From the IMG/VR virus record IMGVR_UViG_3300000117_000007: a stretch of 64,000 bases of DNA, one strand, 5' to 3'. Of the stretch, positions 11,391-37,145 are shown piece after piece. Both the position numbers and the translations under genes were made by a program. This DNA is from a virus. The notes beneath the pieces were generated by a model. The model did not search any database. It saw nothing but the letters and a program-made list of their open reading frames with translations, and was not told where the DNA came from. Every line of letters starts with the position of its first letter. Within the stretch, counting starts at the first letter, position 1.

Positions 11391-12884
11391 ATGGCAGCAA
11401 TTATTTTAGAAAAGTTTAGAACGCATAATGCGAAAGAATTCATCGCAGATTTTGGCGATTCATCAAACTATATTTTTATAGGCAGAACACATGCGTGGGT
11501 AGATGCAAGTGATTCATCAATAGACGACAATAATCCACCTTCACCAGCAAATTCAGAGAGTGAAGAAGTAAGAGCATTCGAAGATATGATTGCACTTAAG
11601 CAAGTTGGTACAGGAGACGTATCACATGGATTAGTTAGACATAACTGGACAGTAGGAACTGTTTACGATGAGTATAGAGATGACTACAGTGCATCAAATC
11701 AGACTCCATCAGGTGCTAACAACTTCTTTGATGGTAGAGGTTATGTTGTAACTTCAGACTACAAAGTTTATAAGTGTCTTAAAACTCCATTTTCCTCAGG
11801 AACAGCACAAGGCGCCGCAGTAAATAGTGAACCAACTACTACTTCAACAACTGATCCTCAAGTTACAACAGATGGTTACATGTGGAAATTCATGTATCAA
11901 ATTCCTGCCTCAGAAGTTATTAAGTATGTTACTAACGATTTCATTCCAGTTAAAACACTAGGTGCTAAAACAACAGTTGCAGGTTCTGGCACAGGTGGTG
12001 GATTCGGAACATCTGCTTCAGATGACGGTTCAGCACAATGGGACGTAGAAGATGATGCAGTAGACGGAGCAATTTACAGATACATTGTTAAAACTGCAGG
12101 TACTGGTTATAGAAATAACTCTAACGCAACAGACTTTTCAGTAGACGTAGCAGTAGAGGGAGATGGTTCTGGTGCAGTAGCAACATTATCATTCGTTGGT
12201 GGTGCATTGAACAACGTAGTATTCAAAGACTCATCATCATATGGTGCAGGATATAAAAGAGCATCATTCCCAACAATTGGTTCTGCAATATCAGGAATCT
12301 CAAGTGGTTCTGGTGCAACTATTCATGCAGTTATTTCTCCAATTCATGGACATGGAGCAAATCCAATCGAAGAACTTGGTGGTAACTTTGTTATCTTAAA
12401 CTCAAGATTAGAATTCGGTGATGGTCAAGGAGACTTCCCAACAGATAACGACTTTAGACAAATTGGATTGATTAAGAATCCTGCTAAAAGAGATGGATCA
12501 ATCTCAAACTTGGGAACTATGACTGCTACTCAGAAACTAACACTTGATGATGCATCAACAGTATCAGTAGATGACATTATTGTGTCTGATCTAAATAACA
12601 ATGCATCAACAAAAAGAGCAAGGGTTGTATCTAAAACAAGTAATGTTATCAGAGTACTTCCAATCGCAAATGGCGGTGGTGAGTTTGTAAACTTTGTAGC
12701 AGAAGATGACATTTATCTAAATGATGCGGGTTCTAAAGTAACAGATGTATCATTAAACGGTATTGATAATGATCACCCAGAAGTTTCTCGATTTACAGGT
12801 GACATCTTGTATGTTGAGAATAGAGGTCCAGTATCAAGGGCCGCTGATCAGATTGAAGATATCAAACTGATTATTGAAATGTAA
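11391..12884 (+). CDS. gp8: Baseplate wedge subunit gp8
   Basis: YKVYKCL, DGYMWKFMY, NDFRQIGLIKNP, ILYVENR..QIEDIKLIIEM motifs. Confidence 0.9.
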   Translation: MAAIILEKFRTHNAKEFIADFGDSSNYIFIGRTHAWVDASDSSIDDNNPPSPANSESEEVRAFEDMIALKQVGTGDVSHGLVRHNWTVGTVYDEYRDDYSASNQTPSGANNFFDGRGYVVTSDYKVYKCLKTPFSSGTAQGAAVNSEPTTTSTTDPQVTTDGYMWKFMYQIPASEVIKYVTNDFIPVKTLGAKTTVAGSGTGGGFGTSASDDGSAQWDVEDDAVDGAIYRYIVKTAGTGYRNNSNATDFSVDVAVEGDGSGAVATLSFVGGALNNVVFKDSSSYGAGYKRASFPTIGSAISGISSGSGATIHAVISPIHGHGANPIEELGGNFVILNSRLEFGDGQGDFPTDNDFRQIGLIKNPAKRDGSISNLGTMTATQKLTLDDASTVSVDDIIVSDLNNNASTKRARVVSKTSNVIRVLPIANGGGEFVNFVAEDDIYLNDAGSKVTDVSLNGIDNDHPEVSRFTGDILYVENRGPVSRAADQIEDIKLIIEM

Positions 12885-12924: not shown

Positions 12925-15900
12925 ATGACTGAGAAAACCGATCTAAATATTACACCCTATTACGACGACTATTCAGAGGACAAGAACTTTCATAAAGTCC
13001 TCTTTCGTGCTGGTAGACCTCTTCAAGCAAGAGAATTAACTCAGTCTCAATCTATTCTACAAGACCAAATCGAAAAGTTTGGTGGCCACTTCTTTAAAGA
13101 AGGTTCTATTGTTCAGGGCGCAGAAGCAAATATAGACATGGACGTCTACTATGTTAAAGTGCAATCATCAAATCCAAATGTGGGCAATGGCGATACTAGT
13201 GTTGAAGGATATAGAGAATCGTTTCATGGTAAATATATCAGAGGTGGTTCTACTGGTGTTGTAGCAAAAGTTATAACTTCAATTGCAGAAACATCTACAG
13301 ATTCTATTACTCTAATTGTTAAAGCATATTCAAGAGGAACCGATTCTAAAGGTTCATTCATCTTTGTTGGCGACGAGACACTTAGAGAAGTCACAATTGA
13401 TGGTGCAGGTGCAGTAACAAATAATGAAGGTAATGAAAACTTCTTTAAGACAGTTACAGATGAAGACGTACCAACTGGTAGATCATCTATTGCACAAATT
13501 AGTCAAGGTACAGTTTACTCAAGAGGATTCTTTGTAAACGTAGATCAACAAGTTATTATCTTAGAGAAGTATAGTGGTGCACCTTCGTATAGAGTAGGAT
13601 TACAGATTAAAGAAGAACTTATCAGTTCTGGTGCAGATACAACATTGTTAGATAATGCACAGGGTACTAATAATGAAAATGCCCCAGGTGCAGATAGATT
13701 AAAAATCACAATGATACTTAAAAAAATAGGTATCGAAGAAGTAACAGACACTAACTTTATCGAATTAACAAGAGTTAATCAAGGTGTTATAGAACTTCAC
13801 ATCAATAGACCAATTTATAGTCATATTGAACATACAATGGCAAGAAGAACTTTTGATACTTCAGGAGACTTTGTAACAAAACAATTCTTGACAACATTTA
13901 GAGAACATTTAAAAGAAGGTGACAACAAAGGATTTTATACTGCTGGAGAAGGTGGTGATAATTCTAAGTTTGTTTGCCAGATCTCCCCAGGTAAAGCATA
14001 CGTAAAAGGGTATGAGATCGAAAAGATTGGAACATCTAATTTAGAATTATTAAAAGCAAGAACTACAGCATCGTTGACTAATACAGCAACGCCTGTTAGA
14101 CTTGGTAACAAATTAAAAGTAAATAATGTACTAGCATTACCAGAATTCCAAGACGATGCAAGTACAAGTACAACAGCATTTAAACCAATAGAATTATATA
14201 ACCAAGCACAGAGCAGTGGTGCTCCTGCTGGTGAAAAGATTGGATTTGCAAGAGTCAGACATGTCGATAATGACTTGAACGTCTCTACACAAGCAACTGA
14301 TGAACTCAACTTATATCTATTTGATATTAAGATGTTCACAAAACTTAAATTCAGTGCTAATATTAGTGCAAGTGATTACAGTGTAGGAGATAAAGTTCAA
14401 ACATCTTCTGGCGCATCTGGTATTGTTGGAGTTATAGAACATAGTACAGATAGTATCTATCTACATGATGTAGTCGGTACATTCAATGATGGTGATACTG
14501 TTGGTGCTAGAGGTCTAAAATCTACAAGCAGAACGATTGACACTGATGGTGTAATTGTATTTAATATTGCACAAGCAAAATCAGTATATCAAGCAACTCC
14601 AGGTGGCGGTAGTCAAAACTTTGTAGCAAACGTAGTACTAGATGATTTCAGAACATTATCTGGATTCGCAACATTGGGTGCTGGTGGAACTTCAGATGCC
14701 ACAGTGACTGGTGTTGGTACTCAGTTCACTAGAGAACTAGTTGTTGGTGATACTATCTTAGATAGTACAGGAACAGAAAGACTAGTTAAAGCAATTACTT
14801 CAGATGTTGCATTTACAATCGACGATGTAGATGGCACTTCAGCATCAGGAGTCTCAAGTCAAGTACAGGTTAATCTTGTTAGAAAAAGATCAGTACTAAG
14901 AGATCAAGACCAAACAGCGGCAATCTTTGCATGGCCAAGAGACTATGTAAGCAAAGTAACTCCGTCTGATAACGGTCTACAAGTTAGAAAGCAAATTAGA
15001 TTAACAATTTCAAATGGAGATATTACAATTCCATGTGATACTGCTAACGAGAAGTTTGCTATAGGAAATGAAGACAATTTTCAATTTGCAGTTATAGAAC
15101 AATCAACTAATGGTAGCAGAACACTTACAAATGGTCAAGTTGTATATCCAAATGACATTTCTAGTTTCCCTACACCAGGTGATGCTAACTTAGTAATACC
15201 TATTGGTGATCAAAGCAGTAATCAATATGACGATGGTGCAAAAGTATTAGTATCTTATTCAGTAGTAAGAAAAACACCAGACATTAAAAACAAATCACTG
15301 ATTAAAAGTAGATCGATTTATTTCGAAGACAAAAACTCAACAAACACTGCAAGATACGGTACTGCTTACGATCATAAAGAATTGTCAATTGGTAAGTCAG
15401 ACGTTAATAAAGTTTGGGCAGTATTAGAAGGAGTACCTGGTACATTAACTAATAGTCACCCTACACCACCAAACGCAACACTAAACAGAACATCAGGCAC
15501 ATTTAACTCAGGTGAAATTATAGTTGGTCAAACATCTGGTGCTAAAGCAAGACTATTGACTTATAATGAGGGTTCAACTTCATATCTTCTATACATTAAA
15601 GAGGGTGTACAGTTCTCAACAGGAGAAGCAGTTGTAGGACAGACAAATACTGGTGTAGCAACAATTCAGAGTTACGATGTAGGATCACCAAACATTAAGT
15701 CTAGATATTTCTTAGACAATGGTCAGAGAGATGGTTATTACGATCTTGCTAAATTACAATTAAAAGAAGGTGAACCTACACCTAATAATCCTATCACTAT
15801 AATCTTCGATCATTTTGAAGCAGGTGGTGGTGATTACTTCGCAAGAGGATCATATAATGATTCAGAAATAGATTACGAAGATATACCAAATTATTCACCA

Positions 15901-18900
15901 AACAAAGTCGACCTTGGAGGGTTTGAACCTGATGGACAATTCGAATTGTCCGATGCAGTTGACTTTAGATCACATACAGATTCACTTATCAGTGTTACTG
16001 CTTATGATCAAACAAACGTACCAAACATATCTAACATTACAACTGCACCATTTGCCTATGATTCTAGAGTGTTCTCATCATTTGATATTGCAACACCTAC
16101 ACCAGGTTCGACAGTTGATGCATCGTTAGAATTCTATGTACCAAGAATTGATAAAGTATTCTTACATAAAGGTGGCATATTCGAAGTAGTATCTGGATAT
16201 CCAGATATCTCACCACAGAAACCACAACCTATCGATGATGCTATTGAAATGTTTGAAATTTTCATACCAGCATATACTGATAATCTCAAAGAGTTAAAAG
16301 TAAAAGCAAGAGATTACAGAAGATTCACCATGAAAGATATTGGTCGAATCAATCAAAGAGTATCAAACTTAGAAAGAATTACATCTCTATCATTATTAGA
16401 GAAAGATACTCAATCAAAACAAATTTTAGATGCAGATGGATTTGACAGATATAAGTCAGGATTCTTAGTAGATAACTTTAGAGGTCACAAGATTGGTGAT
16501 GTATCACATCTTGACTATCATGTTGGTATTGACACTAAGATGGGTCAATTAAGACCACAAAACTATACTCAGTTCTTTGACATTGAACACAAGTCTTCAG
16601 CATCAGCAAACTTTAAAAAGACTGGTGATCTAATCACACTACCATATACTGAACACACTTTTGTTGATCAGAATAAAGCATCAAGACATTTGAATGTTAA
16701 CCCATATCATGTCTTTGCATTTATTGGTAATGTTAAACTTACACCTGAAACAGACATATGGCAAGATACTGAAACTTTACCAGAAGTTAGAATCAATAAA
16801 GAAGGTAACTATGATGCCGTACTTGCAGAAAATCAAAACTCATTAGGAACTGTATGGAATGCATGGCAAACAACATGGGTTGGAGAACCTCAAGTTGTAT
16901 CAGAAGAAACACTAGCATCTGTACCTGCTAACTGGGATGGTAATCCGTCTCAAGGTGGTACAGGACAAAGTACAGCAACTATTACTAGAGAGATAACAGA
17001 AACTCCAGAAACTCAAACAAGAAATGGGGTTATTACTTCAGTAGTAGAAGAGTTCGTAGAAACAAGAAACGATAGAATTGTCAGTGTACAAGTTATACCT
17101 TTCTGTAGAGCAAGAACACTTGAGATTACTGCAACAAACTTAAAACCAAACACTAATCATTACATACTATTTGACGGAATTACAGTCAACGAATATGTAA
17201 GACCATTTAGCACAGACTATTCACAAACAACACATACTGCCGCAAGTGCAGGTGTTAAGACAGATGCTAATGGTATGTTGAGAGCATATTTTGATCTACC
17301 AAATAATAGATTCCAAAAGTTCCCAACAGGACAAAGAGAACTTAGAATTACATCTAGTTCAAATAACTTGTCTAACCCAGATTCATACGGTGTAGCAACT
17401 TATCAAGCACAAGGACTTTTACAATCAAGTCAAACTGAGATTGTATCTACAAGAAATGGTCGTGTGGTACTTGAAAGAATTACAGATCAAAGAGAGATCA
17501 TGCAACGTGGTGAAAGGATTAATGTTAACGTAGTTCAGAGAGAACCTGAACCAGAACCACCACAATCTCCACCACCACCTCCGCCGCCTGATCCACCACA
17601 AGATCCAGATCCAGAACCGACGCCTGATCCAACACCAGATCCGACGCCAGAACCGAATCCTGAACCTGCGCCAGAACCAACGCCAGAACCAACACCACCA
17701 CCGTTGGAAGATCCACCACCAGTGGACCCACCAGTTGTGTTGCCAGTTGATGATGTTTGGAGACCTGTAAGAGACTTCCCAAGAGAGAGAAGATTCGAAG
17801 CAAGAGATTGGATGGATCCACTAGCAGAATCATTCTTAGTTGAATCTGATGGTGGTATGTTCTTAACATCAATTGATATTTACTTTAAGTCAAAAGATAA
17901 TAATTTACCATGTTCAGTACAAATTAGAAATATGGTAAACGGATATCCTGGTCAAATAATTTTACCATTCTCAAATGTGACTAAAAATCCAGGTGATATT
18001 AATGTATCAGAAGATGGTTCAGTAGCAACTACATTTACTTTTGAGTCACCTGTATATGTTGAAGACAGAGCAGAATACTGTTTCGTAGTCTACTCAAACT
18101 CAAACGAATATGAGTGTTACATCTCTAGAATGGGTGAACCAGATATTATTACTGGTGAAACAATTTCAGGACAACCATATGGTGGTTCATTATTCAAATC
18201 ACAAAACGCATCAACATGGAATGCAGAGCAAACAGACGATCTTAAGTTTAAGATGAAAGTTGCTAAGTTTGATACATCGAAGGTATCATCACTTATATTT
18301 GAAAATGCACAATTGCCATCACAAAGTTTACAAGATAATCCTGTACAAACATTTGTTGGTGAACAATACGTAAAAGTAAATCACTACTCACATGGTATGT
18401 ATGATAGTAATTCAGATGTTAAAATTATAAGTGTAACAGGCGATAAGAAGAACGCAATTTACAAACTAAGTACAGCATCTGGTAGTGTTACTAACGTAAC
18501 AGCAGGTACTTACACAGGACTAACTCAGCATGTATCATCATCAACATCAGGTGAAGGTGCAGTATTTAATGTTGTAACAACAGGAACCACTGGTAACGAA
18601 ACGATTGCTAGAATTGAAGTTACAAATCCAGGACATGGATATTCAACTTCAGACAATATCGTAATCAATACAACTCTTGACGGTGATGCAGTAAATATCT
18701 CATTTGGTATTACAACAGTAGGTGACACTTTAGGTGGTATACCAATCACGTTGATTAATGCAGAACACAAAGGTATCACTGATTATAGTATCGATACTTA
18801 TAACATAGACGTAGATGCCTCATTACTAGATAACAATCTAACAAGTTCAACTTATAGTTTTGCAAGTACATATGGTGCTACAGAATCTACAATTGGCGGT

Positions 18901-19683
18901 GGTGATCAAGTAGTCGCAACTAGAAACTTATACTATGATGCATTGCATACTATGATACCATCAACACAAGTTGCTGGTACACAAATCTTTGCAAGTGTCA
19001 ATAGAACGGGTATGGGTTCACCAGAAGATTCAAACTTAGACACAGCATACAGCAGAAGAACATCAAGTAACTTTATCAAACTAAATGATAACGTGTACTT
19101 TGAAAGACCAAGTGTTATTGCTTCAGTTGTAAATGAAGAAAACAACATGGGTAATACTAAGTCATTCAATTGTTTACTACAGTTGAGATCAGTAAATCCA
19201 AACGTATCACCAGTAATTGATATTGGTACAATTGGTTGCTTAGGTATTATGAATAGAATTAACGATATAAACGAATCGGGTGATGTATCAACAGGAGAAG
19301 TATTCGTACCGTCTACTGCACCTGATGGAGACAACAACGCAATGGTTTATATCACAAGAAAGGTAACATTGAAAAATCCTGCAACTTCATTAAAAGTGAT
19401 TGCAGATAACTTCAGACCACCTAATACTGATCTGAAGTTCATGTTTAAGATTATTAAACAGGACGAAACAACACCTATCGATGATATTGGATTTGAGTAT
19501 TTCAATACATCAGGTGGTCCAGACGTAGATACACCGAAAGACGGAAGAAACTTTAAAGAGTATGAATATACTGCTGATGCTCTTCCAGAATTCAGTGCAT
19601 TCGTAGTTAAGATAGTAGGACAATCAAGCAATACATCTCAAGTGCCATTAGTACAATCACTTAGATGTCTGGCGTTAGCATAA
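12925..19683 (+). CDS. Giant virion structural protein (VrlC/DUF4815-like)
   Basis: PYYDDY..FHKVLFRAGRPLQARELTQ N-terminus; RYKSGFLVDNF and DPLAESF motifs; follows gp8 as in marine T4-like phages. Confidence 0.8.
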   Translation: MTEKTDLNITPYYDDYSEDKNFHKVLFRAGRPLQARELTQSQSILQDQIEKFGGHFFKEGSIVQGAEANIDMDVYYVKVQSSNPNVGNGDTSVEGYRESFHGKYIRGGSTGVVAKVITSIAETSTDSITLIVKAYSRGTDSKGSFIFVGDETLREVTIDGAGAVTNNEGNENFFKTVTDEDVPTGRSSIAQISQGTVYSRGFFVNVDQQVIILEKYSGAPSYRVGLQIKEELISSGADTTLLDNAQGTNNENAPGADRLKITMILKKIGIEEVTDTNFIELTRVNQGVIELHINRPIYSHIEHTMARRTFDTSGDFVTKQFLTTFREHLKEGDNKGFYTAGEGGDNSKFVCQISPGKAYVKGYEIEKIGTSNLELLKARTTASLTNTATPVRLGNKLKVNNVLALPEFQDDASTSTTAFKPIELYNQAQSSGAPAGEKIGFARVRHVDNDLNVSTQATDELNLYLFDIKMFTKLKFSANISASDYSVGDKVQTSSGASGIVGVIEHSTDSIYLHDVVGTFNDGDTVGARGLKSTSRTIDTDGVIVFNIAQAKSVYQATPGGGSQNFVANVVLDDFRTLSGFATLGAGGTSDATVTGVGTQFTRELVVGDTILDSTGTERLVKAITSDVAFTIDDVDGTSASGVSSQVQVNLVRKRSVLRDQDQTAAIFAWPRDYVSKVTPSDNGLQVRKQIRLTISNGDITIPCDTANEKFAIGNEDNFQFAVIEQSTNGSRTLTNGQVVYPNDISSFPTPGDANLVIPIGDQSSNQYDDGAKVLVSYSVVRKTPDIKNKSLIKSRSIYFEDKNSTNTARYGTAYDHKELSIGKSDVNKVWAVLEGVPGTLTNSHPTPPNATLNRTSGTFNSGEIIVGQTSGAKARLLTYNEGSTSYLLYIKEGVQFSTGEAVVGQTNTGVATIQSYDVGSPNIKSRYFLDNGQRDGYYDLAKLQLKEGEPTPNNPITIIFDHFEAGGGDYFARGSYNDSEIDYEDIPNYSPNKVDLGGFEPDGQFELSDAVDFRSHTDSLISVTAYDQTNVPNISNITTAPFAYDSRVFSSFDIATPTPGSTVDASLEFYVPRIDKVFLHKGGIFEVVSGYPDISPQKPQPIDDAIEMFEIFIPAYTDNLKELKVKARDYRRFTMKDIGRINQRVSNLERITSLSLLEKDTQSKQILDADGFDRYKSGFLVDNFRGHKIGDVSHLDYHVGIDTKMGQLRPQNYTQFFDIEHKSSASANFKKTGDLITLPYTEHTFVDQNKASRHLNVNPYHVFAFIGNVKLTPETDIWQDTETLPEVRINKEGNYDAVLAENQNSLGTVWNAWQTTWVGEPQVVSEETLASVPANWDGNPSQGGTGQSTATITREITETPETQTRNGVITSVVEEFVETRNDRIVSVQVIPFCRARTLEITATNLKPNTNHYILFDGITVNEYVRPFSTDYSQTTHTAASAGVKTDANGMLRAYFDLPNNRFQKFPTGQRELRITSSSNNLSNPDSYGVATYQAQGLLQSSQTEIVSTRNGRVVLERITDQREIMQRGERINVNVVQREPEPEPPQSPPPPPPPDPPQDPDPEPTPDPTPDPTPEPNPEPAPEPTPEPTPPPLEDPPPVDPPVVLPVDDVWRPVRDFPRERRFEARDWMDPLAESFLVESDGGMFLTSIDIYFKSKDNNLPCSVQIRNMVNGYPGQIILPFSNVTKNPGDINVSEDGSVATTFTFESPVYVEDRAEYCFVVYSNSNEYECYISRMGEPDIITGETISGQPYGGSLFKSQNASTWNAEQTDDLKFKMKVAKFDTSKVSSLIFENAQLPSQSLQDNPVQTFVGEQYVKVNHYSHGMYDSNSDVKIISVTGDKKNAIYKLSTASGSVTNVTAGTYTGLTQHVSSSTSGEGAVFNVVTTGTTGNETIARIEVTNPGHGYSTSDNIVINTTLDGDAVNISFGITTVGDTLGGIPITLINAEHKGITDYSIDTYNIDVDASLLDNNLTSSTYSFASTYGATESTIGGGDQVVATRNLYYDALHTMIPSTQVAGTQIFASVNRTGMGSPEDSNLDTAYSRRTSSNFIKLNDNVYFERPSVIASVVNEENNMGNTKSFNCLLQLRSVNPNVSPVIDIGTIGCLGIMNRINDINESGDVSTGEVFVPSTAPDGDNNAMVYITRKVTLKNPATSLKVIADNFRPPNTDLKFMFKIIKQDETTPIDDIGFEYFNTSGGPDVDTPKDGRNFKEYEYTADALPEFSAFVVKIVGQSSNTSQVPLVQSLRCLALA
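17542..17745 (+). repeat. Pro-rich low-complexity linker (PEPTP/PDPTP repeats) inside the VrlC-like protein
   Basis: EPEPEPPQSPPPPPPPDPPQDPDPEPTPDPTPDPTPEPNPEPAPEPTPEPTPPP; locally GC-rich. Confidence 0.9.
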
Positions 19684-19898
19684 TGACTATCAAAGTTGAC
19701 GGTCATTCACATCTAATACGTGATGAAGAATCACATGCTATTGTTAATACAGATAACGAAGCATATAGATTAACATTACGTAGAAGAAGTATTGTAACTG
19801 CTCAGAGGAACGAGATAAATACATTAAAGAATGAAGTAAGTGAAATTAAAACATTATTAAAACAAGTTATAGAGAACGTAAATGGCAAAAACAGTTGA
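19683..19898 (+). CDS. Small coiled-coil hypothetical protein
   Basis: TAATG coupling to the previous gene; KVDGHSHLIRDEES.AIVNTD motif followed by a heptad pattern. Confidence 0.7.
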   Translation: MTIKVDGHSHLIRDEESHAIVNTDNEAYRLTLRRRSIVTAQRNEINTLKNEVSEIKTLLKQVIENVNGKNS

Positions 19899-21873
19899 CA
19901 ATTACAGCACAATAGAAGACTTCAGAAGAACGTACAACGAACTTGCAGTTGACGTTGGTGATATTCGTGGTTTAAGAACTACAAATCAAGCAACACTTAC
20001 AGATGCAGTAAACAGTATCGAAGATAAATCATTCTTCTTCCAAGAATTTGTGTATACTTCAGATGATACAGATGCAAACGATGGATCTGGTCCATACAAT
20101 TTCTTTGGAGCAGATATCTTTGCTAACGTCTTAAAGTATAAGAAAGATAGGGTACAAGTATTTGTTAATGGGGTTCACTTGAGTGAAGGTATTGACTATA
20201 CTGTTACGGGTCTTCAAGCAGATGCTACTTACAATCAAATACAAATTTCAAACACTTCACCATCTTTTGGATCAGGTCTAACAGACGGTGATAGATTAAC
20301 AGTTTACTCATATACAGGATCGTATCTTGGTGTAGCAGTTCAAAATACTGGCGCCCAGTTCTTCTTGCTTGATGAGACACAAACAATTTACAATAACAAT
20401 GCTAACGGTCTCATATTCAATGGTAGTAACAGTAATCTTGTAACTACATTGCAATCTGGTTTCACAATTCAAAATGAAGGTAATACTTTAGTAAATGGTG
20501 AACTTACAGTTGATACAGGACATACACTAACAGCACCTACAATTACAGACGGAATTGCAACACTATCAAGTGGTTCAATCACAAATGGTGTGAATGGTAC
20601 TTTCTCAGGTACTATTCAAGCAGAGCATCTCTATACAACAGACGATTTACAAGTTGGTGATGATGCAACAATTAGTGGAGATTTGACAGTTAATGGTGCC
20701 GTAACCTTAAACGGTAGTACAATTACTCTAGGTAATCATGCAGATGATAATGTCGTATTTAATGCAGACGTAAACACAGATATCAAACCAAATCAAACTG
20801 GTCTCGATCTTGGTTCAAGTACTCAGAAGTGGGACAACTTATATGTAACAGAAGTTCAAGGTAATATCGATGGTAACGTTTACAGTGGTAGTACTCTTGT
20901 TCTGAATAATACTACTGCTCACCTAACAGGAACAGTATCAGATATTTCAAATCACGATACAGATGATTTAACAGAAGGTTCAAGTAACTTATACTTCACT
21001 ACTGCAAGAGCAAGAGAATCTATCAGTGAAAACTCAACTCAGTTAGCATACGATAATTCAACTGGTGTATTAACATATACACAGGGCAACACTGATACTG
21101 TAGCAGAAGGAACATCTAATCTTTATTATACAAATGCTAGAGCAGATGAAAGAGTTGCTTTAGAAACAGGTGTTAATTTAGATTTATCAAATCAAGATAC
21201 AGATGAACTAGCAGAAGGAAGTTCAAATCTATATTATACAAATACTAGAGCAGATGGTAGAATTGCATTACAAGTCGGTGCTAATCTAGATTTATCAAGC
21301 AAGTCTACAACTAATTTATCTGAAGGTACAAACTTATATTACACAAATACTAGAGTAGATAATAGAATTGCCAGTGCTAGTATTGGTGATTTAGATGACG
21401 TATCTATCTCTAGCATTACGGCAGGTCAAGCACTAACATGGTCAGATTCAGCAAATGATGGTAACGGTGGATTTACACCAACAACACTAGGTAGTAGTAC
21501 AGATAGTTTTGCAGAGGGTTCAAATAACCTATACTTTACAAATGAGAGAGCAATGGACGCCGCCGCATCGATGATTACAACTGCTACTCACAGTAATATA
21601 ACAGTAAGTTATGATGACGATGCAAATACATTGGCATTTAGTGCGGCCGCACAATATGGTGACTCAGATGTCGAGGCACATATTTCAGAAGGACCTGGTA
21701 TTGATCTAGACACTTCTGGTTCAACTTTAGAAATTTCTGCTTCGGCGCAGAAAGGGGTAAAAATATCAAGTACCCATGTAGAATTAGATTATGAAGTAGT
21801 ATCGGCCTCTGGACTTTCAGGAACACCATCAGGAACAGGAAAACCAGAAGGACATCTATGGTTTGTGATATGA
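19882..21873 (+). CDS. Tail fibre-like protein with TDDLxEGSSNLYxT repeats
   Basis: Repeated (D/T)xLxEGSSNLY(F/Y)T units; C-terminal PSGTGKPEGHLWFVI motif. Confidence 0.75.
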   Translation: MAKTVDNYSTIEDFRRTYNELAVDVGDIRGLRTTNQATLTDAVNSIEDKSFFFQEFVYTSDDTDANDGSGPYNFFGADIFANVLKYKKDRVQVFVNGVHLSEGIDYTVTGLQADATYNQIQISNTSPSFGSGLTDGDRLTVYSYTGSYLGVAVQNTGAQFFLLDETQTIYNNNANGLIFNGSNSNLVTTLQSGFTIQNEGNTLVNGELTVDTGHTLTAPTITDGIATLSSGSITNGVNGTFSGTIQAEHLYTTDDLQVGDDATISGDLTVNGAVTLNGSTITLGNHADDNVVFNADVNTDIKPNQTGLDLGSSTQKWDNLYVTEVQGNIDGNVYSGSTLVLNNTTAHLTGTVSDISNHDTDDLTEGSSNLYFTTARARESISENSTQLAYDNSTGVLTYTQGNTDTVAEGTSNLYYTNARADERVALETGVNLDLSNQDTDELAEGSSNLYYTNTRADGRIALQVGANLDLSSKSTTNLSEGTNLYYTNTRVDNRIASASIGDLDDVSISSITAGQALTWSDSANDGNGGFTPTTLGSSTDSFAEGSNNLYFTNERAMDAAASMITTATHSNITVSYDDDANTLAFSAAAQYGDSDVEAHISEGPGIDLDTSGSTLEISASAQKGVKISSTHVELDYEVVSASGLSGTPSGTGKPEGHLWFVI

Positions 21874-21874
21874 T

Positions 21875-23506
21875 ATGTCAGATAAAATATATGTAAAGCA
21901 TCAACTTGCAGGCGGTAGTTTTCAGCAACCGTATAACTATCAGGTTCCAACACCTCTTAGAACTCCTGCAATTAAAAACCAAACTTATCGTCACCCGACA
22001 ATAACGCAGGTCCCTCAGACCTATATTGCAACTGGGAGAACAACTGCTAGGTATCCTTTCACATATCCATTTACAACGCAAGGAACTACTCAACAACCTA
22101 ACACGTATAATATACAAACTTCAGCACAGGGTAACACGAGAGGTAATACTCGAATTTCTGCTCAAGAAACAACACCTGCTATTGGTAACTCTAGAGTTAT
22201 TGGTAACACTAGGGCACCAATCGATGCACAGGGTACAACGATTACACGATACCCATATATTCAACCATTGATCGGGAATACTCAAGCAAACGCACAGCAA
22301 CCAAATACGTATTCTTATCAATCACCGTTTACATATGATATTCAATCACCAACACAATATAGTATACAAACTTCTGTAAATGCACAGTCGCCCTCAATTG
22401 TTGATTATTCATATCAAACATCGTTACAGCAACCTACAATTACACGTTATCCATTTACATATGAATACAATGTGCAAAATGCTACTCAAGGAAGTACTCG
22501 ATACCCATTTACTTATCCGTTTACTGGGAGTTCTACAACACCAGTAATTAAAGTAGACAATTATAATATCGATGATCAAATTCATATACCAGATGAAACT
22601 GGTACTGGTACTTCAAGTAATAACCCTATGGTTTCAACTTTGACAGCAACTACTTTGTTGAGTACTCCTCAAACAAGAGGTGATGCAATTTACTTTAGAC
22701 TTAGAAGAGTACTACCAACTACATCGGGTTATACATCTTCTAATGATTATCTAGTTCTCGAAGCAGTAAAAGATAGTGCCCAACATACTAAAACTGGTAT
22801 AAGTGTATCAGTTGCTAACAGAGAAACATCTGGACCTCCAACTGGTCATACAGGAACAACTGTTATACAGAATTATAGTTCAACAGCAACGAATAATAAT
22901 TATGTAGAAATAGCAAGATTCGGTTGTCCTGTAAGTGAAGGAGTGGTTTCTGAATTTGAAATTACATTAACACCAGACGCCACTACTACATTTAATACAA
23001 CAGTGGGATCATTGTCAAATTCTGCTATTTCTGGTTGTTCTATATCTTTTGATACTACAACAAACTCAAATGGTTTCACTACTTATGCTTTTTCTAATTC
23101 AAATACTTCACATTATAATGACTGCTTAAATGCAAAAATATATGGAAGTTCTTTGATTTCTCCAAACTCTCAGGGATTTGGTATATTAACAACATACACA
23201 TCAACGGGTACTGCTAGTTCGAGTTCATATACAGTAAGGAATTATAGAGGTATTGATATATTAGTGAAACTTAAAAAGACGGGTAGGGGAACCCATACTA
23301 CTCAGTATCCAATGAAACTAAATTTCATATACTTAGCAAGTCATATTACTGGCGGCGGAGGCGGCGGAGGCGGTGGATTCCCATCACCATTCCCAAGTAC
23401 TCCAAGTTTCCCAACGTTTGATCCGTTTAGTGATCCATTCCACCCGTTCAACTTACCTCTTGTTCAGCAGTCAGTAGAACCTCTGGAGCAACGACTAGCA
23501 GGGTAA
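21875..23506 (+). CDS. Zipper fibre chain A: repeat strand (aa ~20-218), globular domain, poly-Gly and F/P-rich tail
   Basis: PFTY/GNTR/QQPNTY repeats complementary to the 23509-24318 product; Gly9 at 23351-23377. Function is inferred. Confidence 0.7.
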   Translation: MSDKIYVKHQLAGGSFQQPYNYQVPTPLRTPAIKNQTYRHPTITQVPQTYIATGRTTARYPFTYPFTTQGTTQQPNTYNIQTSAQGNTRGNTRISAQETTPAIGNSRVIGNTRAPIDAQGTTITRYPYIQPLIGNTQANAQQPNTYSYQSPFTYDIQSPTQYSIQTSVNAQSPSIVDYSYQTSLQQPTITRYPFTYEYNVQNATQGSTRYPFTYPFTGSSTTPVIKVDNYNIDDQIHIPDETGTGTSSNNPMVSTLTATTLLSTPQTRGDAIYFRLRRVLPTTSGYTSSNDYLVLEAVKDSAQHTKTGISVSVANRETSGPPTGHTGTTVIQNYSSTATNNNYVEIARFGCPVSEGVVSEFEITLTPDATTTFNTTVGSLSNSAISGCSISFDTTTNSNGFTTYAFSNSNTSHYNDCLNAKIYGSSLISPNSQGFGILTTYTSTGTASSSSYTVRNYRGIDILVKLKKTGRGTHTTQYPMKLNFIYLASHITGGGGGGGGGFPSPFPSTPSFPTFDPFSDPFHPFNLPLVQQSVEPLEQRLAG

Positions 23507-23508
23507 TC

Positions 23509-24318
23509 ATGGCGCAATTTCAATCACAATGGACACAACCTTACTCAGTACAGAGTCCCTTTATATATCAGGGACAAGGGAGCACTAGAGGAACAACACG
23601 ATATACTTTTCAGTCACCTTCAACTGCTCAGGGTAACACAAGGGGAACTACAGACACTCCAAGTCCATATCGTCAACCAAATATTGGGTCAACAGATGCA
23701 CAAAATACTGTAATTGTACAGCAACCAAGTCGAGGAACTACACAAACACCTTCAATTGGAAACACAAGAGCAACAGTACAGGGACAAACAAGGTCACCAT
23801 ACAGATCGCCATTTACGTATGCGTATCAAGTAGATGCTAGAGGAAATACTGAGACTAGATATCCGTTTACTTTTCAATCACCGTTTACGTATCAGAATCC
23901 TATAACATACGATTTTCAGTATCAGTCGCCATATAGATCACCTGCTAGATATCCCTTTACGTACCCGTTTAGAGTACCATCGATTGGGAATACTAGATCG
24001 CCGTTTACGTATGAAATTCAAAATACAGGTAACACACGTGGTACTACACAAGTGCCTTATATATTTCAAGGCAACAGTAGAGTACCATATAATTTACAGA
24101 CTGTTTCACCTACTACATACACTGTTAGATCACCTAGCATTGTACAGTCACCAGCAATTGGCACAAGACCAATTGGTCCTGTAGCAGAAGTTAAAGCAGT
24201 ATATTTTAAAGATTCTGATGGTGTAGTAAAGAAATTAGAAAAAGGATATGTAAAAGATTCTCAAGGGACTGTAAGAAAAATACATACTGGCATCCCATTT
24301 GCCCAACTAAGCAATTAA
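23509..24318 (+). CDS. Zipper fibre chain B: complementary repeat strand plus C-terminal small beta domain
   Basis: Antiparallel complement of chain A at i+j=238; ends VYFKDSDGVVKKLEKGYVKDSQG. Confidence 0.7.
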   Translation: MAQFQSQWTQPYSVQSPFIYQGQGSTRGTTRYTFQSPSTAQGNTRGTTDTPSPYRQPNIGSTDAQNTVIVQQPSRGTTQTPSIGNTRATVQGQTRSPYRSPFTYAYQVDARGNTETRYPFTFQSPFTYQNPITYDFQYQSPYRSPARYPFTYPFRVPSIGNTRSPFTYEIQNTGNTRGTTQVPYIFQGNSRVPYNLQTVSPTTYTVRSPSIVQSPAIGTRPIGPVAEVKAVYFKDSDGVVKKLEKGYVKDSQGTVRKIHTGIPFAQLSN

Positions 24319-24337: not shown

Positions 24338-24673
24338 ATGGCAATCATAGCAAATATATACATCGATCAAGGCACAGATTTCAGCATTACAGTAGATGTT
24401 ACTAATGCCGATGGCACAGCATTAAATCTAAGTGGTTATACTGCGGCCGCACAAATGAGAAAGACATATACTTCTTCGGCAGTTAGTGCATCTTTTGGAA
24501 CAACAATAATTGAAGCATCAGGACAAGTAACACTATCTTTGACTGATTCACAAACAAGTGCATTATCGCCAGGTAGATATTTGTATGATCTCAATATCAC
24601 ATCTTCAGGTGGAAATACGAGTAGAGTTGTTGAAGGACAAGCAATCGTTACACCGGGTGTAACGAGGAGTTAA
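24338..24673 (+). CDS. Small Ig-like virion/fibre adaptor protein
   Basis: ANIYIDQGTDF..LSGYTAAAQMRK..GRYLYDL..RVVEG pattern recalled from marine T4-like fibre regions. Confidence 0.65.
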   Translation: MAIIANIYIDQGTDFSITVDVTNADGTALNLSGYTAAAQMRKTYTSSAVSASFGTTIIEASGQVTLSLTDSQTSALSPGRYLYDLNITSSGGNTSRVVEGQAIVTPGVTRS

Positions 24674-32088: not shown

Positions 32089-33846
32089 ATGGCGTCAGGC
32101 AATCAGAAAATAAAAACCCCTTCGGGTTGGAATAGCACAAGAGGTGCTTGGGTAAAGACTGGTGGTACAACTTGGAAGTCAGTAGATCAAATCTATGTCA
32201 AGACTCCTACAGGTTGGAACGATGCATCTGGTCAAGAGAACGCACAGCAACCATATCCTTATATTGCCAATGCTCAAAATCCTGTTATAAGACAACAAGT
32301 ACAACCATATCCGTACATTGCAAATGCTCAAAATCCGGTTATAAGACAGCAAACGCAACCGTATCCTTACATTGCGAATGCACAGAATCCGTTCATACGT
32401 CAACAGACACAACCTTATCCTTATATTGCGAATGCACAGAATCCATTTATAAGAAATAGACAAACGCCGTTTACGTATCAGTATCAGTCCCCAAGTACAT
32501 ATGCTACTCAAGGAAATACACAGGTACCTTATGATCATCAATCACCATTTACTTACGAAACGCAAGGGTCGACAAGAGGTAATACTCAAACACCATTTAC
32601 TTACCCATACATTCAACCACTGATCGGGAATACTCAAGAGTCAAACTCGTATATACATCAGGTTGCAACTACTGGTAATACAAGATCACCATTTACATAT
32701 GCATATCAAGTAGATGCTAGAGGCAATACACAAGAACCGAATATCTATAATTATCAAGTAACAACTACTGGTAATACAAGATCGCCGTTTACATACGCAT
32801 ACCAAGTTGATGCTAGAGGTAGTACACAAGAACCGAATACTTACATCTATCAAGTATCAACTACTGGTCAGACAAGGTCACCATTTACTTACCCTTTCAT
32901 TGCTAACGCAACAGGGAATACTCAGGAACCTAATACATATTCATATGGTGTTCCTAATATTGGTAATACAAGATCACCATTTACATACGCATTCCAAGTA
33001 GATGCACAAGGTGTAACTGCTGGAGTTACTAGATCACCATTTACATATGCATATCAAGTAGATGCTAGAGGAAGTACGCAACAACCTAATACATATAATA
33101 TACAAACAGCAACGATTGGTCAGACAAGGTCACCATTCACGTATGCATATCAAGTAGATGCTAGAGGAAGTACTCAGCAACCTAATACTTACATTTATCA
33201 AGTTACTACAACTGGTAATACAAGATCACCATTCACGTATGCATATCAAGTAGATGCTAGAGGAAGTACTCAACAACCAAACACTTACCCATTTACTGTA
33301 AATGCTAATGGGTCAACTAGATCGCCATTTACTTACCCTTATATCGCCAATGCTACTGGTAATACTAGATCACCATTTACGTACCCTTACATAGCAAACG
33401 CAACAGGGAATACTAGATCACCATTTAGATACCCTTATATACAACCTTTAATTGGGAACACCACAGGAAATACTACGGGTAACACAAGAGTTAATGCACA
33501 GGAACCTAATACAACACCTACAACATATCCGTATACAGTAAATGCTCAAGAACCAAACAGAACACCTACAACATATCCGTATACAGTAAATGCACAGCAA
33601 CCAGTGCCATATCCGTTTACATACCCATACACAGTAAACGCAACAGGGAATTCACGAAATCCATTTACATACCCGTATACAGTCAATGCAACAGGGAATT
33701 CAATCGGTAGTACAAGATCACCATACAGATTCCCATTTAGAACACCGACTAGAGTACCATGGAGAGTCACAGCACAGCAACCCAGTCAGGGAAGATTCCC
33801 ATTCTTCTTTAGTCCAGGAGGAGGTTTACCACAATTCTTAAAATAA
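32089..33846 (+). CDS. Zipper fibre chain C: N-terminal Trp-containing beta domain plus ~515-aa repeat strand
   Basis: KTPSGW..WVKTGG..YVKTPTGW, then 18-aa and 16-aa repeats complementary to 33866-35488. Confidence 0.72.
   Translation: MASGNQKIKTPSGWNSTRGAWVKTGGTTWKSVDQIYVKTPTGWNDASGQENAQQPYPYIANAQNPVIRQQVQPYPYIANAQNPVIRQQTQPYPYIANAQNPFIRQQTQPYPYIANAQNPFIRNRQTPFTYQYQSPSTYATQGNTQVPYDHQSPFTYETQGSTRGNTQTPFTYPYIQPLIGNTQESNSYIHQVATTGNTRSPFTYAYQVDARGNTQEPNIYNYQVTTTGNTRSPFTYAYQVDARGSTQEPNTYIYQVSTTGQTRSPFTYPFIANATGNTQEPNTYSYGVPNIGNTRSPFTYAFQVDAQGVTAGVTRSPFTYAYQVDARGSTQQPNTYNIQTATIGQTRSPFTYAYQVDARGSTQQPNTYIYQVTTTGNTRSPFTYAYQVDARGSTQQPNTYPFTVNANGSTRSPFTYPYIANATGNTRSPFTYPYIANATGNTRSPFRYPYIQPLIGNTTGNTTGNTRVNAQEPNTTPTTYPYTVNAQEPNRTPTTYPYTVNAQQPVPYPFTYPYTVNATGNSRNPFTYPYTVNATGNSIGSTRSPYRFPFRTPTRVPWRVTAQQPSQGRFPFFFSPGGGLPQFLK
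32251..32466 (+). repeat. 4 x 54-bp tandem repeat encoding PYPYIANAQNP(V/F)IRQQTQ
   Basis: Visible in DNA and translation. Confidence 0.9.
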
Positions 33847-33865
33847 GAATTAAGGAAAAGTAATT

Positions 33866-35488
33866 ATGGCACAAGGACCTTATCAATATAGAGCAACAGT
33901 TAGAAGTCCAACAGACTACCCTGTGTTTATCAATGCACAAGGGAGTGCCCAACAACCGAATGGATATCCGTTCACTTACCCGTATATTGCTAACGCAACA
34001 GGGAACAGTAGACAACCATTCACTTACCCATATATTGCTAACGCAACAGGGAGTACAATTGGTGCTACTAGATCCCCTTACATAGCAAACGCAACTGGTA
34101 ATACAAGGGTACCATTTAGATCCCCTTACATAGCAAACGCAACTGGTAACACGATTGTACCATTTAGGTCGCCATATAGACAACCTACTACTTATCCATT
34201 TACTTATCCGTTTACATATGCGTATCAAGTAGATGCTAGAGGTAGTACACAGCAACCTAATACTTACCCATTTACTGTAAATGCTACAGGGAGCACACAG
34301 CAACCTAACACTTACCCATTTACTGTAAATGCTACAGGGAATACTCAAGAACCAAATATTTACCCTTATATCGCCAATGCTACTGGTAATACTAGATCAC
34401 CATTTAGATATCCGTATATTCAACCGTTAATCGGGAATACACAAGAACCAAATACGTATATCTTCCAAACAGCAACAATTGGTAATACTAGATCGCCGTT
34501 TAGATACCCATATATTCAACCTCTAATCGGGAATACACAAGAACCTAATACTTACATATATCAGACACCAAGTATTGGTAACACTAGATCACCATTTAGA
34601 TACCCTTACATTCAACCTCTAATCGGGAATACACAAGAGGCAAATCCGTATGCATTTAGATATCCGTATATTCAACCACTAATTGGGAATACGCAAGAAC
34701 CTAACACATACTCATTCCAAGTTACAACTATTGGTAATACTAGATCGCCTTTCACTTACCCATATACAGTGAATGCTACAGGGAATACTCAGGAACCAAA
34801 TACGTATATCTATCAAACAGCAACGATTGGTAACACTAGATCGCCGTTTAGATACCCATATATACAACCTCTGATTGGGAATACACAAGAACCTAACACA
34901 TATATTTTCCAGTCACCAGCATCTGGTAGCACAAGATCGCCGTTTAGATATCCGTTTATTCAACCGTTGATCGGGTCTACTCAAGAACCTAATACTTACA
35001 TATATCAAGTTTCTACACCAGGTATAACTAGATCGCCATTTACATATGCGTATCAAGTAGATGCAACAGGTAACACTAGACAACCTAACAGATATCCATT
35101 TACATATCCGTACATTGCAACTGGTCAGCAACCTAATATTAGACAGCAGACACAACCGTATCCTTATATTGCTAACGCAGTGAATCCGTTCATTAGAGAT
35201 GCTAGACAACCAGCAACATATAATCACAGATCACCTAGCACTTACGCAACTCAAGGGAATACACAAGTGCCATATAATCATAGATCCCCAAGTACATATG
35301 CTACTCAAGGAAATACTCAAGTGCCTTATAACCATAGATCCCCAAGTACATATGCTACTCAAGGAACTACAAGGGTACCATACAGTCATAGATCCCCAAG
35401 TACATATGCAAGACAGGGTAGAAATCCTGTGATCAGATGGGATGGAGACTTAGATAACCAATGGCCAGGTTCTCCAATTACGTCATAA
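33866..35488 (+). CDS. Zipper fibre chain D: antiparallel complement of chain C
   Basis: SD AAGGA; complementary to chain C at i+j=574. Confidence 0.72.
   Translation: MAQGPYQYRATVRSPTDYPVFINAQGSAQQPNGYPFTYPYIANATGNSRQPFTYPYIANATGSTIGATRSPYIANATGNTRVPFRSPYIANATGNTIVPFRSPYRQPTTYPFTYPFTYAYQVDARGSTQQPNTYPFTVNATGSTQQPNTYPFTVNATGNTQEPNIYPYIANATGNTRSPFRYPYIQPLIGNTQEPNTYIFQTATIGNTRSPFRYPYIQPLIGNTQEPNTYIYQTPSIGNTRSPFRYPYIQPLIGNTQEANPYAFRYPYIQPLIGNTQEPNTYSFQVTTIGNTRSPFTYPYTVNATGNTQEPNTYIYQTATIGNTRSPFRYPYIQPLIGNTQEPNTYIFQSPASGSTRSPFRYPFIQPLIGSTQEPNTYIYQVSTPGITRSPFTYAYQVDATGNTRQPNRYPFTYPYIATGQQPNIRQQTQPYPYIANAVNPFIRDARQPATYNHRSPSTYATQGNTQVPYNHRSPSTYATQGNTQVPYNHRSPSTYATQGTTRVPYSHRSPSTYARQGRNPVIRWDGDLDNQWPGSPITS
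35219..35420 (+). repeat. About 4 x 54-bp tandem repeat encoding YNHRSPSTYATQGNTQVP
   Basis: Visible directly; mirrors the 4 x 18-aa block at the start of chain C. Confidence 0.9.
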
Positions 35489-35522: not shown

Positions 35523-37103
35523 ATGAAACCAGATTACGAAACCACCCTTGCTCAATTAAAAGACCTAGACAAAGGCGATAAGACTTATGTACATCTAGGC
35601 AGTTTTGATGCTGATAAAGAGTATAAAGAAACAGATGCATATAAACTATTGAAGTATGTCTTTGAGAATAAATTAGATTCACTTAAACGTGTGAAATGGA
35701 AAGACATATCAAAACTGCAAAGTACTAGACTAGGCAAATTTGGCGATCAAATGAAATTGAATAGTTATGGTATGATGCAACATCAATCATATATCTACAA
35801 TCATTATCTTCCATTTGGTTACACACAAATAATGGATCCTGAAAGAAATATTAAGGGTCAGATGATTATGGATTTTATGAATCATGATGGAGAATATGAA
35901 AGTCTTGCTAAGTATTCTAACTTCGAAGGATTGACATGTGATCAAAATACAGACTATGTGAGAGATCAATTAGGAAGTTTCTATTATCATGCGGCCAAAG
36001 GTCACTGGTTAATTCACAATTTACAGAAAGAGGGATTGTGGTTTCCAATTCAAGGACAGATCAATAAGAATGGTGACAGTGCTAGTTTACAAATACACCC
36101 AGGTTCTATACGTACTCCAGTATTTGAGTTATTGAATGATGATAATTTAGAAGTTCTTTTATACAATGACAAAGATATGTTTCCAGATGTTGCACCATTA
36201 GAACTAGATGAATACTTAGAACAGATAATAGAAGAAGTAGATATTCATGGATCACATTCTAATATATCTTTTGCTTACAGTATGGGTTATATTGAAACTA
36301 ATTTAAGTCTTCAATCTAAAAGAGATTTCAGAAAAGAAGTATACGACTTCAATAAAAAAGTTAGTGAACAAGTTAAAGGTAAAAGAGTAACTATCTACAT
36401 TGGTTATGATAGTCGTCATTCTAATTTAGCAGAGCAAAGTAAAGCATTGATAGAAAGAATGATTGAAAAGAATACTTCATGTTTGGGTGGCGTAAACACG
36501 TCTGACCCAATCAAAGCAGTATCAGACTGGAAACCAGAAGTTAAACTTTTAGATATATCAAAAATACCAGAGTATACTAGAGAGTATGCTAATCAATCAA
36601 CAGAATTTACATATAGTAGATTTCTTATCCCTCATTTAGAAAATTATGAAGGGTATAGTATATTCGTAGACGATGACTACATCTTTAGAAAGTCTATACT
36701 ACCATTCTTTTTATTTTTAAATCCCGACGATGCAGTAGCATGTGTTCAATATGATTTTGATAATCATGGCGAGACAAAGTTTGATGGAGAAAAGAACGTT
36801 TCTTATCCTAAAAAACTATGGTCAAGTTTCATGGTATTCAATAACGGACACGAAGACTGTAAAAAACTAACACCAGAAACTGTAAACTCAGAATCTGGTA
36901 AGTATCTACATCAATTTGAGTGGACAGATAAGATCAGTAAAATACCAGACTTTCATTTTGTGACAGAAGGGTATGATCACTTAGATGATAAACCACAAGC
37001 ATTTGCGATACATTATACACGTGGTGGTCCATGGATAAAAGACATGGATACCAGCAACATAAATATGTTAAACATATATGATATGTTAACAGACACCGAT
37101 TAG
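35523..37103 (+). CDS. Two-domain protein: unknown N-terminal domain (possibly ParB/Srx-like) plus GT-A glycosyltransferase
   Basis: C-terminal half has IYIGYDSR, STEFTYSRFLIP, IFVDDD (DxD), YPKKLWSSFMVFN, IHYTRGGPW; CATAAATA at 35484. Confidence 0.75.
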   Translation: MKPDYETTLAQLKDLDKGDKTYVHLGSFDADKEYKETDAYKLLKYVFENKLDSLKRVKWKDISKLQSTRLGKFGDQMKLNSYGMMQHQSYIYNHYLPFGYTQIMDPERNIKGQMIMDFMNHDGEYESLAKYSNFEGLTCDQNTDYVRDQLGSFYYHAAKGHWLIHNLQKEGLWFPIQGQINKNGDSASLQIHPGSIRTPVFELLNDDNLEVLLYNDKDMFPDVAPLELDEYLEQIIEEVDIHGSHSNISFAYSMGYIETNLSLQSKRDFRKEVYDFNKKVSEQVKGKRVTIYIGYDSRHSNLAEQSKALIERMIEKNTSCLGGVNTSDPIKAVSDWKPEVKLLDISKIPEYTREYANQSTEFTYSRFLIPHLENYEGYSIFVDDDYIFRKSILPFFLFLNPDDAVACVQYDFDNHGETKFDGEKNVSYPKKLWSSFMVFNNGHEDCKKLTPETVNSESGKYLHQFEWTDKISKIPDFHFVTEGYDHLDDKPQAFAIHYTRGGPWIKDMDTSNINMLNIYDMLTDTD

Positions 37104-37107
37104 TCTA

Positions 37108-37136
37108 TTGACTAATCAATACATTTGGAGTATAAT
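37108..37136 (+). promoter_or_regulatory. Sigma70-type (early) promoter
   Basis: TTGACT-17 bp-TATAAT; the -35 is overlapped by an 8-bp inverted repeat at 37098-37117. Confidence 0.75.
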
Positions 37137-37145
37137 TAAAAGATT

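Follow-up and report, generated by a model that had tools for sequence, protein, structure and literature searches.

Two adjacent genes in the tail-fibre block of a marine T4-like phage probably encode a two-chain, pair-coded beta-ribbon stalk

Can the order of residues in one protein chain determine which other chain it pairs with, and in exactly which register? This question is raised by two adjacent genes, called A and B here, in a 64,000-nucleotide stretch of viral DNA (IMG/VR record IMGVR_UViG_3300000117_000007; this whole stretch is referred to below as the window). A first-pass annotation made from the letters of the DNA had proposed that the products of A and B align antiparallel and without gaps, residue i of A facing residue j of B at i+j=238, to form a stalk with a receptor-binding head at its distal end. 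The follow-up analysis reported here assigns a probability of about 0.72 to a closely related reading, in which A and B constitute a two-chain antiparallel beta-ribbon stalk with an aperiodic pair code, conserved proximal ends, and a variable distal head. The coordinates and frames first given for the two genes are correct, and their products can be divided as follows.

21875-23506, plus strand: gene A, 543 residues, open reading frame and frame checked
21875..21931, plus strand: A residues 1-19, N-terminal motif MSDKIYVKH..., assigned from its conservation to the proximal end of the putative stalk
21932..22552, plus strand: A residues 20-226, zipper arm, a putative 207-residue beta-strand, delimited by ungapped complementarity to B 218-12
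22553..23344, plus strand: A residues 227-490, non-repetitive distal 'head', candidate receptor-binding part
23345..23506, plus strand: A residues 491-543, Gly9 run and Phe/Pro-rich tail, then the stop codon, read from the sequence
23509-24318, plus strand: gene B, 269 residues, open reading frame and frame checked
23509..23541, plus strand: B residues 1-11, N-terminal overhang that would adjoin the head of A
23542..24162, plus strand: B residues 12-218, zipper arm, antiparallel to A 226-20
24163..24318, plus strand: B residues 219-269, conserved C-terminal domain, then the stop codon

The most direct sign of pairing is the placement of glycine. Residues 20-218 of A hold ten Gly (54, 70, 86, 90, 104, 110, 120, 134, 206, and 218), each of them opposite a Tyr of B at i+j=238, and the 15 Gly of B between 22 and 218 are without exception opposite an aromatic residue of A (14 Tyr, 1 Phe). 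The counts of the first-pass annotation were thus reproduced in full, and the peak that it expected at 238 in an offset scan was found: 25 of 28 possible Gly:aromatic pairs are formed at this register, the three misses all lying outside residues 20-218, versus 17 at the next best, register 240. Other registers and the parallel orientation yield no more than 14 pairs; with the combinations A/D, C/B, A/A, and B/B included (C and D being a paralogous gene pair located further 3' in the window), the counts do not exceed 14-22 pairs and present no outstanding peak. When the sequence is shuffled with residue parity or blocks of 4-16 residues preserved, the mean is 11 pairs (standard deviation 1.1-1.4), and the highest count among 5000 shuffles is 19. 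The Gly spacing had been described as irregular, which holds for the arms as a whole: their identity autocorrelation is at most 0.19 at every lag, and no lag is dominant. Simple periodicity was rejected as the cause of the match, given the aperiodic arms and the shuffle controls.

Glycine constitutes one part of the code. A second part, overlooked in the first pass, comes from the strict two-residue alternation of the arms, in which even positions are occupied by Tyr, Thr, Gly, Ala, Phe, Ser, and Val, and odd positions by Pro, Gln, Thr, Arg, Asn, and Ile. All Gly and Tyr of the arms are at even positions, and all 42 Pro within residues 20-218 are at odd ones; 37 of these 42 face Gln or Arg (22 Pro:Gln and 15 Pro:Arg). 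Successive Pro are 2-26 residues apart, every spacing being even, and the Pro power spectrum peaks at a period of 2.0. Further pairs counted in the window are Gly:Tyr (24), Asn:Thr (11), Gln:Thr (9), Phe:Thr (9), Asp:Ile (5), Ala:Tyr (5), and Ala:Phe (4). Since both residue parities show preferred pairs, both faces of the putative ribbon would be coded, and each rung would set a long or large residue over a small residue or Pro.

The specificity of the match can be quantified with a log-odds pair matrix, trained only on three homologous pairs of other contigs, with the window's own pair left out of the training. With this matrix, A and B score 196 bits at register 238, compared with 23 bits at the next best register and 21 bits in the parallel orientation, and shuffling B in 8-residue blocks leaves 25.5 +/- 3.7 bits. 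The cross-scans A/D (33 bits) and C/B (30 bits) contain no long register, as the first-pass annotation had predicted, while C and D score 454 bits with each other at register 574. Self-hairpins of A or B were rejected, A/A and B/B reaching 32 and 22 bits (at most 32). An origin of the match in antisense or inverted-repeat DNA was also rejected: the A and B genes share no inverted DNA similarity, and neither Gly and Tyr codons nor Pro and Gln codons are reverse complements of each other.

Any two of A, B, C, and D, which have short modules in common, match locally over short stretches at 20-35 bits. These matches fit a different explanation, according to which the chains do not pair with each other at all, but form homomeric fibres or are disordered, the mirror match being a by-product of a shared repeat vocabulary; the failure of AlphaFold2 to find structure (predicted local distance difference test, pLDDT, 27-28) would agree with this. 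Nevertheless, shuffling B in 8- or 16-residue blocks keeps the vocabulary and abolishes the signal, and non-cognate pairs built from the same vocabulary fail to match. Arm lengths that co-vary between the two genes, fusions that fold back at the same anchor, and paired substitutions, all detailed below, also speak against it, and the absence of any inter-chain pairing is considered highly improbable.

Related loci provide evidence that is independent of the window. Relatives of B at 32-43% identity are accompanied by syntenic A genes, and one metagenome scan using the C-terminal domain of B yielded 203 relatives and 80 loci. When the matrix is trained on the window pair, cognate homologous pairs score 124, 144, and 103 bits, and all 12 non-cognate combinations remain at or below 35. 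For 43 metagenomic pairs, cognate scores are mostly 100-190 bits, compared with a non-cognate mean of 30. The number of Pro facing Gln or Arg peaks at a register equal to the length of B minus 31-35 in 44 of 46 two-gene loci of marine metagenomes (z 5-9.6). In these 46 loci, the length of B, which varies from 182 to 372 residues, predicts the end of the arm of A, located from composition alone, with r = 0.97.

Pair statistics were collected from 24 representative pairs, comprising 4843 rungs and excluding the window. In this set, the residue opposite Pro is Gln or Arg in 1062 of 1217 cases, a single Pro parity is kept within each of the 24 A arms, and the enrichment is 4.5-fold for Ala:Tyr, 6.0-fold for Ala:Phe, 6.4-fold for Gly:Tyr, and 3.8-fold for Asn:Thr; Gly is faced by Tyr or Phe in 232 of 303 cases among the relatives. 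The letters in use differ between subfamilies. One that is nearly free of Gly, with A proteins starting MSDDIFIK... (L021, L056, L058, L063, L079, and L086), contains modules such as FTYQHRSP opposite QEPNIRNQ, and employs Pro:Gln/Arg, Arg:Tyr, His:Asn, and Glu:Ser pairs; a subfamily with almost no Gly depends on the Pro code together with Ala:Tyr. As the pairing code is kept where Gly is scarce, the Gly:Tyr letter is a dialect, and not the core of the code.

On five contigs, the two genes are replaced by a single-chain fusion of 483-552 residues, which lacks the large head and carries both the N-terminal motif of A and the C-terminal domain of B.

L022:909-2567, single-chain fusion
L027:679-2145, single-chain fusion
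L067:1665-3299, single-chain fusion
L078:1526-2977, single-chain fusion
L085:1929-3383, single-chain fusion

These fusions are self-complementary in antiparallel orientation at i+j equal to their length minus 32-34 (z 6.2-8.2), with the same anchor as the two-gene form, and so provide Rosetta-stone evidence for what would be a fold-back topology. They have a tip of about 120 residues where the large head would be.

A close relative of the pair, L006:4001-6444, aligns with window positions 21875-24318, with arms at about 97% DNA identity. Eight arm sites of A and nine of B differ between the two loci; three of these face each other, compared with 0.36 expected (P = 0.003). Pro is involved in three changes, each of which forms or restores a Pro:Gln/Arg pair: E197P in A faces Gln41 of B, T33P in B faces Gln205 of A, and P51R in B converts the sole Pro:Pro rung of the window to Pro:Arg. 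The earlier claim that the pairing is real and partner-specific is borne out by the Pro:Gln/Arg code, the score of 196 against 23 bits, the cognate-only matching of homologues, the co-variation in length, the fusions, and the paired substitutions. At the level of sequence, the pairing of A with B, its topology, and its partner specificity are, therefore, strongly supported.

Synonymous divergence (pS) from L006 is 0.046 in the arm of A and 0.079 in B, and 0.166 and 0.17 in the upstream fibre gene and the head, respectively. The low values in the arms hint at homogenisation among repeat modules, or at a recent exchange of the stalk.

The C/D pair uses the same code in a more regular manner. C and D are complementary to each other and not to themselves, and their 454 bits at register 574 stand against 173 bits at 574 +/- 32, with a period of 16/32 residues. 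They have no head domain: C 573 faces D 1, which leaves a 12-residue distal overhang of C. The proximal overhang of C corresponds to its first 33 residues, and includes WVKTGG and YVKTPTGW. In a close relative, L004:2719-5393, C has 407 residues and D 476, with two registers (394 and 510), which reflect either about 116 residues that truly lack a partner or a collapse of repeats in the metagenome assembly. Only sub-threshold chance matches to Pfam and PHROGs were obtained for C and D.

The 16/32-residue period of C/D and its strong secondary registers at 574 +/- 32 are what stacked coils would give, and the ribbon might accordingly be coiled as a two-start beta-solenoid, or take up some other compact repeat fold, resulting in a shorter and thicker rod. 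For A/B, however, there is neither a dominant period (autocorrelation at most 0.19) nor a secondary register, and residue parity is unbroken over 207 residues, and over 140-330 residues in 24 relatives, although the corners of a solenoid would be expected to disturb it. Such a fold is, thus, regarded as unlikely.

The two-chain ribbon that is preferred here would be assembled as follows. A and B would be made in equal amounts from translationally coupled genes; the A stop codon and the B start codon are 2 nt apart, and among the related loci, 22 of 43 have a 1-nt overlap of the two genes, with a gap that never exceeds 13 nt. The chains would then associate antiparallel and in register, A 20-226 with B 218-12, to give a two-stranded ribbon of about 207 rungs. 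Arithmetic at roughly 0.33 nm per rung puts the fully extended ribbon at about 68 nm (65-70 nm). On the even face, taken as the hydrogen-bonded one, large residues would lie over small ones (Tyr:Gly, Phe:Thr, Tyr/Phe:Ala, and Ile:Ser); on the odd face, without inter-strand hydrogen bonds, Pro would be opposite Gln or Arg, and Asn or Gln opposite Thr. Because the order of pair types is aperiodic, one register and the cognate partner alone would satisfy all rungs, and the code would keep A:B separate from C:D despite their common vocabulary.

In an antiparallel pair, one residue parity is hydrogen-bonded to the partner, and the NH and CO groups of the other point outward. From standard beta-sheet geometry, we infer that Pro is free of an inter-strand hydrogen-bond cost only at sites with the NH directed off the partner. 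Pro occupies about a fifth of the outward-facing, odd sites in both chains, which argues against a regular bonding of either edge to a third strand; this argument, too, derives from beta-sheet geometry.

It bears on another possibility, in which the pairing is real and the working unit is a bundle of ribbons, for example a trimer of A:B forming a six-stranded needle, with the Tyr/Phe/Gly/Thr face packed inward as the core and the Pro/Gln/Arg face turned to the solvent. A trimeric build is usual for phage fibres. The arms have an aromatic and small face and a polar one, and a narrow core would be well served by rungs that each combine one large with one small residue. An elongated beta needle of six antiparallel strands is present in gp37, the tip of the T4 long tail fibre (PMC7291167). 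Nevertheless, no second A/B register marks another strand contact (the next best reaches 23 bits), the arms have no His-x-His metal sites, the face that would constitute the core is rich in Tyr, Thr, and Ser and not aliphatic, and the abundance of Pro at outward sites is hard to reconcile with regular hydrogen bonding to a third strand. A bundle is considered clearly less probable than the preferred reading.

Several observations weigh against the free two-stranded ribbon itself. AlphaFold2 predicts no strands in the arms, with a pLDDT of 27 for A and of 28 for the L078 fusion (5 sequences). To our knowledge, there is no solved precedent for a free 68-nm two-stranded ribbon, which may need bundling or a partner for stability. 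Near the proximal third, the pairs A1/B1 and A2/B2 require a slight shift of register or a bulge, and the ribbon is, thus, not gap-free in all relatives. Lastly, the head presumably binds a receptor, a role proposed from its variability and position. The sequences show complementarity, its co-variation across phages, and the gene fusions; that the chains form a beta-ribbon, how long it is, where it docks, and that it binds a receptor are what we infer.

The two ends of the stalk differ in their conservation. Residues 1-19 of A do not vary among A, A1, and A2, and the motif M[SA][DE][KED]I[YF][VI] is found in nearly all 46 loci. Register 238 sets these residues against B 219-237, with KIYVKH opposite KFYVAK. 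B 219-269 contains two V-x-x-V-Y-F-K-D-x-x-G-like hairpin repeats, and is kept in all eight aligned B proteins. Together with the N-terminus of A, it is presumably the proximal, docking end, where the two segments would meet and attach to the baseplate or the upstream fibre.

At the opposite end, A 227-490 would be at the distal turn and would bind the host. Over residues 220-490, A differs from L006 by 68 changes in 271 residues (about 75% amino-acid identity, against 96% in the arm). The ratio of non-synonymous to synonymous substitution rates (dN/dS) relative to L006 is 1.04 for residues 227-490; the arms have values of 0.43 and 0.24, and the upstream fibre one of 0.26. In related loci, the position of the head is taken by at least 11 mutually unrelated domains. 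The comparison across related phages that the first-pass annotation had called for, thus, reveals both a dN/dS of 1.04 and at least 11 unrelated replacements; fast change and unrelated domains in one position make up the pattern of a receptor-binding cassette. Variability, position, and location in a baseplate/tail-fibre block indirectly point to A 227-490 as a swappable receptor-binding cassette.

Searches of 1.84 and 5.8 billion proteins retrieved no relative of the head besides L006, an HMMER scan of 1.84 billion representatives returned only the head itself, and an ESM Atlas search with the head gave no usable match. In the AlphaFold2 model of full-length A, computed from a 3-sequence alignment (pLDDT 27), 13 low-confidence strands are placed in the head. 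The Gly9 run (residues 491-499) and the Phe/Pro-rich tail reported earlier are present in the sequence of A, and the tails of its homologues are likewise rich in Gly and Pro.

The window derives from a divergent T4-like myovirus of marine origin. Its large terminase subunit shares 56% identity with that of uncultured Phage C48C1, the nearest deposited phage, and about 45% with those of cyanomyoviruses; the C48C1 genome contains no relative of B. A and B are located in a baseplate/tail-fibre block; other genes of the window are as follows.

5100-6971: gp6, in the baseplate/tail-fibre block, 5' of the fibre genes
Between gp6 and gp8 in the listed order: gp7-like gene, same block
11391-12884: gp8, same block
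12925-19683: VrlC/DUF4815 protein, 2252 residues, followed by the run of fibre genes
19882..21873, plus strand: upstream fibre gene, 663 residues, with EGSSNLY repeats (phrog_697, structural protein)
24338..24673, plus strand: LtfC-like beta-sandwich gene, 111 residues, always 3' of B in related loci (synteny)
32089..35488, plus strand: paralogous pair C (32089-33846) and D (33866-35488), sharing the pairing code of A/B, register 574
37697-38398 and 39856-40563: 2OG-Fe(II) oxygenases

The order of genes around the 663-residue upstream fibre gene is kept in L002, L005, and L006, and its product is a possible attachment partner of A/B. The 111-residue protein matches phrog_1084 and phrog_3304 ('L-shaped tail fiber protein assembly', E = 7.5e-25), and PF23926 weakly; it is possibly an assembly factor or an adaptor. 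Its dN/dS relative to L006 is 1.16, a value that rests on very few changes. Directly 3' of C/D, the region 35523-40563 encodes a 526-residue protein without a Pfam match, followed by at least two 2OG-Fe(II) oxygenases, and these genes could encode enzymes that modify the fibres, which are rich in Pro, Asn, and Arg.

How does this design relate to known ones? A and B have no family in Pfam or PHROG, and no match in a PDB sequence search. Searches of 50,697 phage genomes by blastn and tblastn with A, B, and the C-terminal domain of B gave no real match, with the limit that matches to the arms may be masked by the low-complexity filter. Full-text literature searches turned up no account of such a fibre; the 'two-protein chain-like fibre' of phage A1002 was rejected as different, since it consists of dimers strung on a rope protein. 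A two-gene coded beta-zipper fibre is, thus, a design not found described in the literature. The general features of the tail-fibre/receptor-binding class are all present, namely a tail/baseplate block, a conserved attachment end, and a variable distal domain.

A broader proposal is that of a protein analogue of base pairing, for and against which the odds seem even. Its small alphabet would comprise Gly/Ala with Tyr/Phe and Thr with Phe on one face, and Pro with Gln/Arg and Asn with Thr on the other, and would fix the partner and register of two-chain beta-ribbons of 140 to more than 500 residues. Several orthogonal fibres could assemble in one infected cell, their length would be set by matched insertions in two genes, and the two strands would constitute the thinnest known virus shaft, with interchangeable heads. 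If the two chains do zip together as their sequences indicate, this would be a natural and evolvable beta-strand pairing code, setting partner and register across tens of nanometres. Designers of proteins have codes of this kind for coiled coils and for DNA, and none for beta structure. The pairing would further account for a widespread, unannotated block of tail genes in uncultured marine T4-like phages (the 203 relatives of the one scan), locate their host-recognition domains, and show how stalk lengths and heads are exchanged.

Among virus fibres, the triple beta-spiral shafts of adenovirus and reovirus are composed of short beta-strands with Gly or Pro at set positions. They resemble the present case in being attachment-fibre shafts, and the 16-residue period of C/D recalls them. 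However, they are single-chain homotrimers with a repeat of about 15 residues, whereas the A/B arms are aperiodic and mutually, not self-, complementary; a triple beta-spiral was rejected for A/B, which has no repeat and no dominant lag. Collagen-like, polyproline-II, and polyglycine-II designs (e.g., the phage S16 gp38 adhesin) were rejected as well, the period being 2.0 and not three residues; a period of 2 excludes the collagen-like and polyproline-II forms.

In heterospecific coiled-coil zippers and register-coded collagen heterotrimers, complementary residues set both partner and register, and orthogonal pairs can coexist. These assemblies are helical, with heptad or Gly-x-y repeats, whereas A/B has a period of two and would be extended, antiparallel, and Pro-rich. 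The Gly:Tyr letter has a counterpart in 'aromatic rescue', the cross-strand Gly-Tyr pairs that, according to works listed among the references of PMC5740924 (Merkel & Regan 1998; Jackups & Liang 2005; Michalik et al. 2017), stabilise antiparallel sheets and outer-membrane beta-barrels. In both cases, Gly is opposite Tyr or Phe on an antiparallel neighbour (25 of 25 in the window, on strands that are predicted here). The known pairs are isolated within globular or barrel folds, whereas in A/B they form a repeated inter-chain letter, in addition to the Pro:Gln/Arg code.

The nearest known architecture is the needle at the gp37 tip, reportedly described by Bartual et al. 2010. It is formed by one chain as a homotrimer, and is short, whereas A/B requires two gene products, in the window as in 46 loci, with arms of 140-335 residues. 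The gp37 needle has His-x-His iron sites; the A/B arms have no such motif, with a single His in the arm of A and none in that of B. Unlike in gp37, to which A and B have no sequence similarity, the register of A/B is set by an aperiodic pair code. What the two have in common, as far as sequence can tell for A/B, is that strands extend outward along the fibre axis and then return, a binding domain being placed at the turn; A and B, moreover, belong to the tail-fibre block of a T4-like phage, and have single-chain relatives that would fold back in the same manner.

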